From assembly GCA_030066785.1 (NCBI GenBank), contig JASJAZ010000050.1, positions 1 through 21,380 on the forward strand: 21,380 nt of DNA. The letters are read 5' to 3'. Positions 2,806 through 3,340 of the stretch are shown piece after piece. Position 1 is the first letter of the stretch. Each line of letters begins with the position of its first letter. The position numbers were made by a program, and so were the translations under genes. The stretch is from Desulfobacterales bacterium. Its GTDB lineage: Bacteria > Desulfobacterota > Desulfobacteria > Desulfobacterales > JASJAZ01. The notes beneath the pieces are model-generated. The model did not search any database. It saw only the letters and a list, made by a program, of their open reading frames with translations, and was not told the DNA's origin.

Positions 2806-2996
2806 GGCATGTTTCCAGTGCTGTTTTATCCGGGCCTCAGCTTTTGCCGGCGCCTGATGCCATCCATTTTAGAACCGGATTCACATTCAGGTTATCCGAT
2901 CACGGCTGGCAGCGCGGATAAAACCGGGCGGATAACGGCTCACTCCCCTCGGGCCTGTTAGGTGATCGTTACAGCGATCATGTGGGATAGAATCCC

Positions 2997-3070
2997 TGGC
3001 GGAGCAGGATTCGAACCTGCAACTCCCGTGTCCTCAGCACGGTGCTCTACCCGATTGAGCTATCCTCACC
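2997..3070 (-). ncRNA. tRNA-like element (tRNA mimic or decayed tRNA). D-arm, anticodon arm (loop CUGAGGA, anticodon GAG) and T-arm (GCAGG-UUCGAAU-CCUGC) are intact. The variable loop is short. In the acceptor stem only 4 of 7 pairs can form, and no CCA is encoded.
   Basis: The reverse complement reads GGUGAGGAU-AGCUCAAUCGGGUAGAGC-A-CCGUG-CUGAGGA-CACGG-GAGUU-GCAGGUUCGAAUCCUGC-UCCGCCA. The anticodon stem is 5 perfectly Watson-Crick pairs with U33 present. The D-loop carries a GG and the T-loop is UUCGAAU. An anticodon GAG (Leu) combined with a 5-nt variable loop is incompatible with a real tRNA-Leu. The acceptor strands GUGAGGA and UCCGCCA mispair at positions 1-72, 2-71 and 4-69. Confidence 0.6.
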
Positions 3071-3215
3071 TGATACCTTCCTTCGTAAGATCCCATGTTC
3101 GATACACACAACATTTACCGCAAGATAGTAAGCGCTTTTACTTTCATTGTTGAATGCCGTGCGTCGCTGGCCCGGCGGGTATCAGCATTTGAAAGAACAT
3201 CTGTCCGCCTTAATG

Positions 3216-3231
3216 AGCAACGGATGTGCCA
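3216..3231 (-). promoter_or_regulatory. sigma54 (RpoN) -24/-12 promoter for the tRNA-like / SPFH / rtcA / rtcB operon
   Basis: The reverse complement is TGGCAC-ATCCG-TTGCT, an exact match to the TGGCAC-N5-TTGCW consensus with correct GG/GC spacing. It faces the operon and sits ~145 nt upstream of the tRNA-like element, with the sigma54 activator RtcR encoded divergently. Confidence 0.75.
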
Positions 3232-3284
3232 TTTATTCCTAAAGTCGTTGTCATCAAATCTATTCATCTGATATTATTGGATAT

Positions 3285-3304
3285 AATATTTTATCCGTTA
3301 TATT
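3285..3304. promoter_or_regulatory. Candidate RtcR enhancer (UAS) site 1
   Basis: AATATTTTATCCGTTATATT is a 20-mer repeated at 3321..3340 with 19/20 identity. Its ends, AATAT...ATATT, are an inverted repeat. It lies ~80-90 bp upstream of the sigma54 transcription start on the operon side. Confidence 0.45.
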
Positions 3305-3311
3305 TCATCCC

Positions 3312-3340
3312 TTGACTTAAAATATTTTATCCGATATATT
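3312..3340 (+). promoter_or_regulatory. sigma70-like promoter for rtcR
   Basis: TTGACT (3312-3317) is separated by 17 bp from TATATT (3335-3340). The predicted start is ~28 nt upstream of the rtcR ATG. The leader is AT-rich with no clear Shine-Dalgarno sequence. Confidence 0.4.
3321..3340. promoter_or_regulatory. Candidate RtcR enhancer (UAS) site 2
   Basis: AATATTTTATCCGATATATT is a direct repeat of site 1, offset by 36 bp (about 3.4 helical turns). It overlaps the spacer and -10 of the putative rtcR promoter. Confidence 0.45.

Follow-up and report, generated by a model that had tools for sequence, protein, structure and literature searches.

b7a-tRNAs are tRNA-like elements found beside a Band-7 gene in RtcB/RtcR operons, and they were described bioinformatically by Burroughs and Aravind (2016), according to a bioRxiv preprint that refers to that work (10.1101/312249). 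The rtc locus of Pseudomonas aeruginosa also includes an SPFH gene. The YrlA and YrlB Y RNAs, encoded in the rsr-yrlBA-rtcBA operon of Salmonella, are structured noncoding RNAs with a tRNA-like module, which lie behind an RtcR/sigma54 promoter and ahead of RNA-repair genes. The enhancer of RtcR is given as "NK" in a published table (PMC4987338), in agreement with the remark of a first-pass annotation of the present locus that RtcR binding sites are poorly defined, and an E. coli "UAS" fragment is in experimental use without a defined motif.

The locus studied here belongs to a Desulfobacterales bacterium, and "the window" means the whole stretch of 21,380 nucleotides that was analyzed (contig JASJAZ010000050.1; Table 1). 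Its RtcR is 57% identical to that of E. coli, and the intergenic region between the SPFH gene and rtcR (822 bp) holds a sigma54 promoter and a tRNA-like element. The layout proposed in the first-pass annotation, a sigma54 promoter followed by a tRNA-like element and a transcribed leader, was right, and the promoter matches the consensus exactly. As in the b7a-tRNA systems, the tRNA-like element adjoins a Band_7 gene in an RtcR-linked operon, and the same arrangement was found in the L009 and L011 loci and in dozens of metagenome loci. The window differs from those systems in that a conserved RNA of ~650 nt, with more structured domains, surrounds the element, and in that the locus has rtcA but no rtcB. 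It resembles the Y-RNA operon of Salmonella in placing a structured RNA with a tRNA-like module between an RtcR/sigma54 promoter and RNA-repair genes, but it lacks rsr (Ro60); moreover, YrlA is circularly permuted with respect to tRNA, with a closed acceptor stem and no anticodon loop, whereas the window element keeps the normal D/anticodon/T order with an anticodon loop.

Relatives of the locus numbered 539, of which 80 were fetched. The nearest public ones are Desulfobacterales genomes, the closest being that of Olavius symbiont Delta 1 (RtcR 88% identical), and a near-identical metagenome contig, L022, encodes an RtcR 99.4% identical to that of the window. We refer to loci with RtcR 83–100% identical as clade A (10 others besides the window at 83–91%) and to those with RtcR 55–73% identical, E. 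coli with its 57% among them, as distant loci. The rtcA and SPFH genes are present without rtcB beside them in the window (1–8000) and in L001 and L002. In L009 the module of tRNA-like element and SPFH gene has its own sigma54 promoter and lies convergent downstream of rtcR, away from rtcA. Ordinary-looking tRNA gene arrays were seen directly downstream of rtcA in L001 (348–978, six genes), L013 (107–797, five) and L003 (132–215, one); the window reaches 245 bp beyond rtcA.

Table 1. Features of the rtc locus and of the TTATCCG copies, in window coordinates.
Feature	Position	Strand	Evidence or remark
rtcA (RNA 3'-terminal phosphate cyclase)	246..1265	-	Pfam RTC 5.9e-79
SPFH/Band-7 protein gene	1447..2553	-	Pfam Band_7 4.1e-32
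Multi-helix RNA domain with four leader heptamers	2764..2957	-	Covariance model R1
H4, CGGAUAAAAC	2823..2832	-	3' strand of H2:H4 helix; includes heptamer 2826-2832(+)
TTATCCG leader copy	2826-2832	+	Exact match
H3, CGGAUAAC	2891..2898	-	CGG may pair locally with downstream CCGG (RNAalifold)
TTATCCG leader copy	2892-2898	+	Exact match
H2, GUUUUAUCCG	2915..2924	-	5' strand of conserved long-range helix; includes heptamer 2915-2921
TTATCCG leader copy	2915-2921	-	Exact match
H1, GUUAUCCG	2929..2936	-	UCC predicted to pair with upstream GGA in a small hairpin (RNAalifold)
TTATCCG leader copy	2929-2935	-	Exact match
Leader hairpins	2996-2984 and 2979-2964	-	
tRNA-like element (b7a-tRNA type)	2997..3070	-	Rfam tRNA 50.7 bits (3001-3065); ARAGORN
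5' leader domain, long irregular hairpin closed by CUGAUACC:GGUAUCAG	3070..3185	-	RNAalifold, 12 loci
sigma54 promoter TGGCACatccgTTGCT	3231-3216	-	Exact consensus match; predicted to drive leader, SPFH gene and rtcA
Promoter-side repeat B	3282..3304	+	Carries TTATCCG 3291-3297, 15-21 bp upstream of rtcR -35 box
TTATCCG promoter-side copy	3291-3297	+	Exact match
Predicted rtcR sigma70 -35 box TTGACT	3312-3317	+	Column identity 0.95 in clade A
Promoter-side repeat A	3318..3340	+	Carries TTATCCG 3327-3333 in -35/-10 spacer of predicted rtcR sigma70 promoter
TTATCCG promoter-side copy	3327-3333	+	Exact match
Predicted rtcR sigma70 -10 box TATATT	3335-3340	+	Column identity 0.89 in clade A
rtcR	3376..4968	+	CARF-type RtcR domain, sigma54 AAA+ domain, C-terminal HTH; Pfam RtcR 7.9e-85, Sigma54_activat 1.4e-50
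TTATCCG outlying copy	16292-16298	+	Exact match; the one copy in the remaining 20.5 kb

TTATCCG copies and the divergent promoter region

TTATCCG occurs exactly seven times in the window, and six of these copies fall within 2826–3333. The count of five between 2891 and 3340 in the first-pass annotation was borne out by exact search, while the positions given there for the two minus-strand copies (2917–2923 and 2931–2937) were each 2 nt too high. A sixth nearby copy (2826–2832) had been overlooked, an important omission since 2915–2921 has its conserved pairing partner there. Six copies were observed in the 822 bp from 2554 to 3375, compared with 0.19 expected from dinucleotide shuffles, and at least six copies of any 7-mer appeared in only 3 of 500 shuffles. 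These copies cannot be counted as independent, since two make up a single direct repeat and the other four are arms of RNA helices together with their complements. In 32% of shuffles the promoter-side region and the leader had an exact word of 9 nt or more in common, a coincidence that is not unusual; therefore, we do not regard the heptamer as a unitary motif. All six copies were found together only in the window and L022, and the other clade-A loci have zero to two, all in the leader. A REP-like dispersed repeat was rejected within the 21-kb window, where one further copy lies outside the cluster and 3.16 are expected in the whole window.

The two direct repeats reported upstream of the sigma54 promoter are real; they measure 23 nt, agree at 21 of 23 positions, are AT-rich and are spaced 36 bp apart. 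Because their counterparts in relatives are only 5–15/23 alike and the 21/23 match is confined to the window and L022, the near-perfect repeat is specific to the window lineage. The interval between rtcR and the sigma54 box was aligned for 11 non-redundant clade-A loci with RtcR 83–100% identical, L022 being omitted as redundant. Exact TTATCCG was found at neither promoter-side site in any of the 10 other clade-A loci, so that besides the window only L022 carries it there; the sequences at the two sites are, e.g., CGGATTA/CGGTAAT, CGAATTC/CAAAAAA, and CCAAAAT/TGTCAAA. Mean column identity over the 11 loci was 0.62 for the heptamer of repeat B and 0.71 for that of repeat A, compared with 0.80 for the whole interval, which makes these columns the least conserved of the region, and ATCCG was kept at site A in 5 of the 11. 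The heptamer is thus not conserved in orthologous loci, the outcome that its proposers had named as telling against it. As for dyad symmetry, both sites face the same way, as direct repeats, and the heptamer itself is non-palindromic; symmetry within each 20-mer is confined to its outer AATAT/ATATT.

In nearly all related loci the sigma54 box is found on the strand opposite to rtcR, 143–287 bp upstream of the gene, and because the two are so close the enhancer must fall within a short interval. Outside the promoters, the blocks of the divergent region with the highest conservation in clade A are 3341–3375 (0.89) and 3263–3284 (0.80), and we consider them stronger candidates for sites of RtcR or IHF than the heptamer is. 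Immediately ahead of the rtcR ATG, relatives have the palindromes TATAAATTTATA and TATAAAATTTTATA; ~60–80 bp upstream of the sigma54 start they have the repeat TGATAT-N5-TGATAT. No Shine-Dalgarno sequence is visible for rtcR. The sequence GGAGATTnnCCG-N5-CCAATTnAC precedes rtcR both in loci of the Acidobacteria type and in E. coli (L013, ~5905–5945; L102, E. coli, 4205–4245), and probably represents a conserved rtcR promoter architecture.

A conserved leader RNA around the tRNA-like element

Conservation extends from the promoter all the way to the SPFH start codon, with 83% identity over four loci, and nhmmer found the leader upstream of dozens of SPFH homologues. The helix closing the 5' domain stays paired through a C-G to U-A change. 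ARAGORN called the tRNA-like element "Leu-GAG", with the long variable arm missing. The D and T arms are retained and the anticodon stem covaries, but the element is not an ordinary decoding tRNA because the acceptor stem is imperfect. We compared the elements of the window (2997–3070, minus strand), L001 (5622–5694), L016 (3024–3097), L009 (10914–10988), L011 (2919–2995) and L006 (3702–3774). The "anticodon" differs even among close relatives (GAG, GAU, GUC, UAU, and ACG). A search of 2500–3260 against Rfam 15, at gathering and at permissive thresholds (E up to 10), returned the tRNA model and no other credible match.

Downstream of the two small hairpins, the multi-helix domain that carries the four leader heptamers has a conserved core, GGCCCGAGGGGAG ... 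CAG ... CCAUGCAGCGCGUGGAUACCGC, in which CCAUGCAGCGCGUGGAUACCGC at 2807–2786 is invariant; the invariant core can be written CCAUGCAGYGCGUGGAUACCGC. Within clade A the sequences are too similar to separate the four possible pairings among the heptamer arms; therefore, a covariance model (R1) was built on 2957–2764 and searched against all fetched loci, and it settled H2:H4 only. It matched 53 loci, 33 of them distant, with GC contents of 0.50–0.75. In the resulting alignment 91.1% of cells are paired and both partners vary in 30 of 43 pairs, a result reached by 0 of 500 shuffles, although these pair counts are inflated since the 53 sequences were fitted to the model.

H2:H4 appears as a 10-bp helix both in the RNAalifold consensus of 15 clade-A sequences and in the centroid fold predicted for the window sequence, and is 95.3% paired in clade A. 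Over 50 distinct sequences it is 92.4% paired, with two-sided changes at 9 of its 10 pairs, compared with ~35% pairing in slid controls, in an alignment fitted to the model. In distant homologues GUUUUAUCCG:CGGAUAAAAC is replaced by GCCACCGGCG:CGCGGGUGGC and also by GCCGCGAGCC:GGCUCGCGGC. By eye, the stem is bounded by an invariant G and the invariant CAG, and is short or absent in several loci. Because pairing is kept while sequence and length are free, H2:H4 is a real helix of variable length with no fixed sequence, which reminds us of the variable expansion stems of large structured RNAs, whose sequence and length also vary and which are missing in some members; the difference is that the RNA family of the window matches no Rfam model beyond its tRNA module. 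The proposal that the leader copies serve as RNA structural elements is therefore supported in that two of them are strands of this covarying helix.

The particular hairpin proposed at first fared less well. The inverted repeat GTTATCCG (2891–2898)/CGGATAAC (2928–2935) and the alternative arm CGGATAAA (2914–2921) are present in the sequence, but GTTATCCG:CGGATAAC shows no compensatory change and is missing from both the consensus fold and the window's own fold; the conserved pairing joins 2915–2924 with 2823–2832 instead. Written as RNA, this first hairpin is H1:H3 (GUUAUCCG, 2936–2929, with CGGAUAAC, 2898–2891); it is 85.7% paired in 15 close relatives, no pair changes on both sides, and it is not alignable in distant homologues. 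The small H1 hairpin has 85.6% of cells paired and 3 of 3 pairs changing on both sides in the 53-sequence alignment fitted to R1, and the H1 sequence varies in relatives, e.g., GUUUUCCG, GGUAUUCG, and GUCAGCCG. The H3 heptamer is limited to the window and L022 because relatives have CGGAUGGC or CGGCUGGC, and the exact heptamer of H4 is likewise found only in these two, most relatives having CGGGUAAAAC. Since relatives have CGGAUGGC and CGGGUAAAAC, the extra copies in H3 and H4 are attributable to G-to-A transitions that turned G.U into A-U pairs.

Origin of the heptamer cluster

Taking these results together, we consider, with a probability of roughly 0.7, that the six TTATCCG copies fall into two unrelated sets, which share a word in one lineage, rather than forming one functional motif. 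The leader set would belong to a structured RNA of ~650 nt that runs through the b7a-type tRNA-like element to the start codon of the SPFH/Band-7 gene and is presumably transcribed from an RtcR-dependent sigma54 promoter. Its H2 and H4 copies would be strands of the long-range helix, where selection would act on pairing and not on sequence, while those at 2935–2929 and 2898–2892 would lie in neighboring, more variable elements; two of the four would have appeared through the lineage-specific G-to-A transitions. The promoter-side set would be part of the AT-rich direct repeat lying across the predicted rtcR sigma70 promoter, probably as plain promoter or UP-like sequence, with a CCG core that is not its conserved part. 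Against this explanation stand the rarity of six copies of one 7-mer in 822 bp under a plain shuffle, the enhancer-like distances of the promoter-side sites, the ATCCG retained at site A and a TTATCC cluster in the unrelated lineage L044.

The first-pass annotation suggested that TTATCCG may be the half-site of the RtcR HTH, which we judge very unlikely from the sequence comparison. In its wider form, in which the heptamer or the surrounding 20-mer would be the HTH site and the promoter-side copies a sigma54 enhancer and perhaps, in addition, an operator for autoregulation of the rtcR promoter, the idea draws on the lack of a defined RtcR site in the literature and on positions ~90 and ~126 bp upstream of the predicted sigma54 start near 3204, which together with the 36-bp spacing are typical of enhancers and, beside the activator gene, recall those of bacterial enhancer-binding proteins. 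Classical sites of that kind are, however, dyad-symmetric and conserved with their activator, whereas those of the window are direct repeats whose heptamer core is already lost at 83–91% RtcR identity. The C-terminal HTH segment (SEAGR..F.VSR...ND.DRLRKYL) is conserved across the range of RtcR compared, only a short basic linker varying, and a half-site read by it should be conserved too; yet the word is missing from both sites in the 10 other clade-A loci, where the columns fall below the regional average, from ~19 of 24 non-redundant RtcR upstream regions and from E. coli. Exact TTATCCG was found near rtcR in none of 15 genome loci nor in E. coli, and the distant loci (RtcR 55–73% identical) likewise lack it there. 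The ATCCG conserved in part at site A favors the wider form, but is confounded by the neighboring -10 box. A de novo motif search (k-mer coverage and an EM-style search) in ~24 non-redundant RtcR upstream regions gave no convincing RtcR site, only AT-rich words at inconsistent positions, e.g., ATTTTATA, which occurs in 10 of the 24 compared with a null maximum of 7. A second sigma54 promoter, which would make an enhancer of the leader copies, was rejected, as no good match lies between 2553 and 3200. L044, whose RtcR is merely 65% identical, has four TTATCC words in 85 bp around the rtcR promoter (2212–2330) and none elsewhere in 4.8 kb, with a perfect 15-bp palindrome, TGGATAAATTATCCA, over the predicted rtcR -10 box and TGGATAAAAAT and CGGATAG on the sigma54 side; this cluster parallels the motif of the window. 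Even if its palindrome and further GGATAA words are counted in favor, we consider it improbable that RtcR binds TTATCCG or the 20-mer. The same cluster could also point to some other DNA-binding protein, a DnaA-box-like reader being the candidate, that would recognize GGATAA(A) in the divergent region of some lineages. The DnaA box consensus is the 9-mer TTATCCACA, from which a box departs at one or two positions at most and with which TTATCCAAA agrees at 8 of 9 positions; GGATAA reaches 2.67 per kb in 34 RtcR upstream regions, compared with 0.4 per kb across all loci, and the groups of L001 and L033 have TGGATAAAT directly beside the -24 box. However, 5 of ~24 lineages and AT-rich composition account for the enrichment, the word sits at different places in different lineages, and the window copies (TTATCCGTT, TTATCCGAT, TTATCCGGG, TTATCCGCG, and TTATCCGCC) agree with the box at only 6–7 of 9 positions. 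We hold such a reader to be highly improbable.

A further alternative concerns the leader alone. Two UUAUCCG arms might compete for two CGGAUAA arms, and the alternative folds might govern how the tRNA-like element is processed or how the SPFH gene and rtcA are expressed. All four arm combinations keep 84–95% complementarity in 15 clade-A sequences, a range that does not exceed shuffle controls, and the window lineage has hardened both G.U-containing combinations to perfect A-U pairs, as a switch would have it. Two-sided changes and survival in distant homologues belong to H2:H4 only, however; H1:H3 lacks compensatory change and appears in neither the consensus nor the single-sequence folds, the whole stem is short or missing in many homologues and behaves as a variable expansion stem, and the domain lies >200 nt from the SPFH ribosome-binding site. 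We therefore consider such a switch improbable. The suggestion that one motif serves as both DNA enhancer and RNA element is not supported by these results either. A reading confined to the window lineage, in which the 9-bp word that the DNA repeats and the H2:H4 RNA helix have in common would be read by one protein as a feedback device, is barely credible to us.

Implications for Band-7-type Rtc operons

The undefined RtcR site makes a recurring word beside rtcR tempting, and TTATCCG should not serve as an RtcR motif. Attention is redirected to the blocks at 3263–3284 and 3341–3375 and to the large conserved leader RNA. The latter would consist of a 5' hairpin domain, a b7a tRNA-like module whose anticodon varies freely, two hairpins and the multi-helix domain. 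Tentatively, and at somewhat less than even odds, we propose that it is an undescribed, widespread structured RNA of ~650 nt, extending from the RtcR/sigma54 promoter to the Band-7 gene, and that it could act as a Y-RNA-like cofactor or sensor of Rtc RNA repair. The leader RNA around the b7a tRNA-like element is a more promising lead on Band-7-type Rtc operons than the heptamer.
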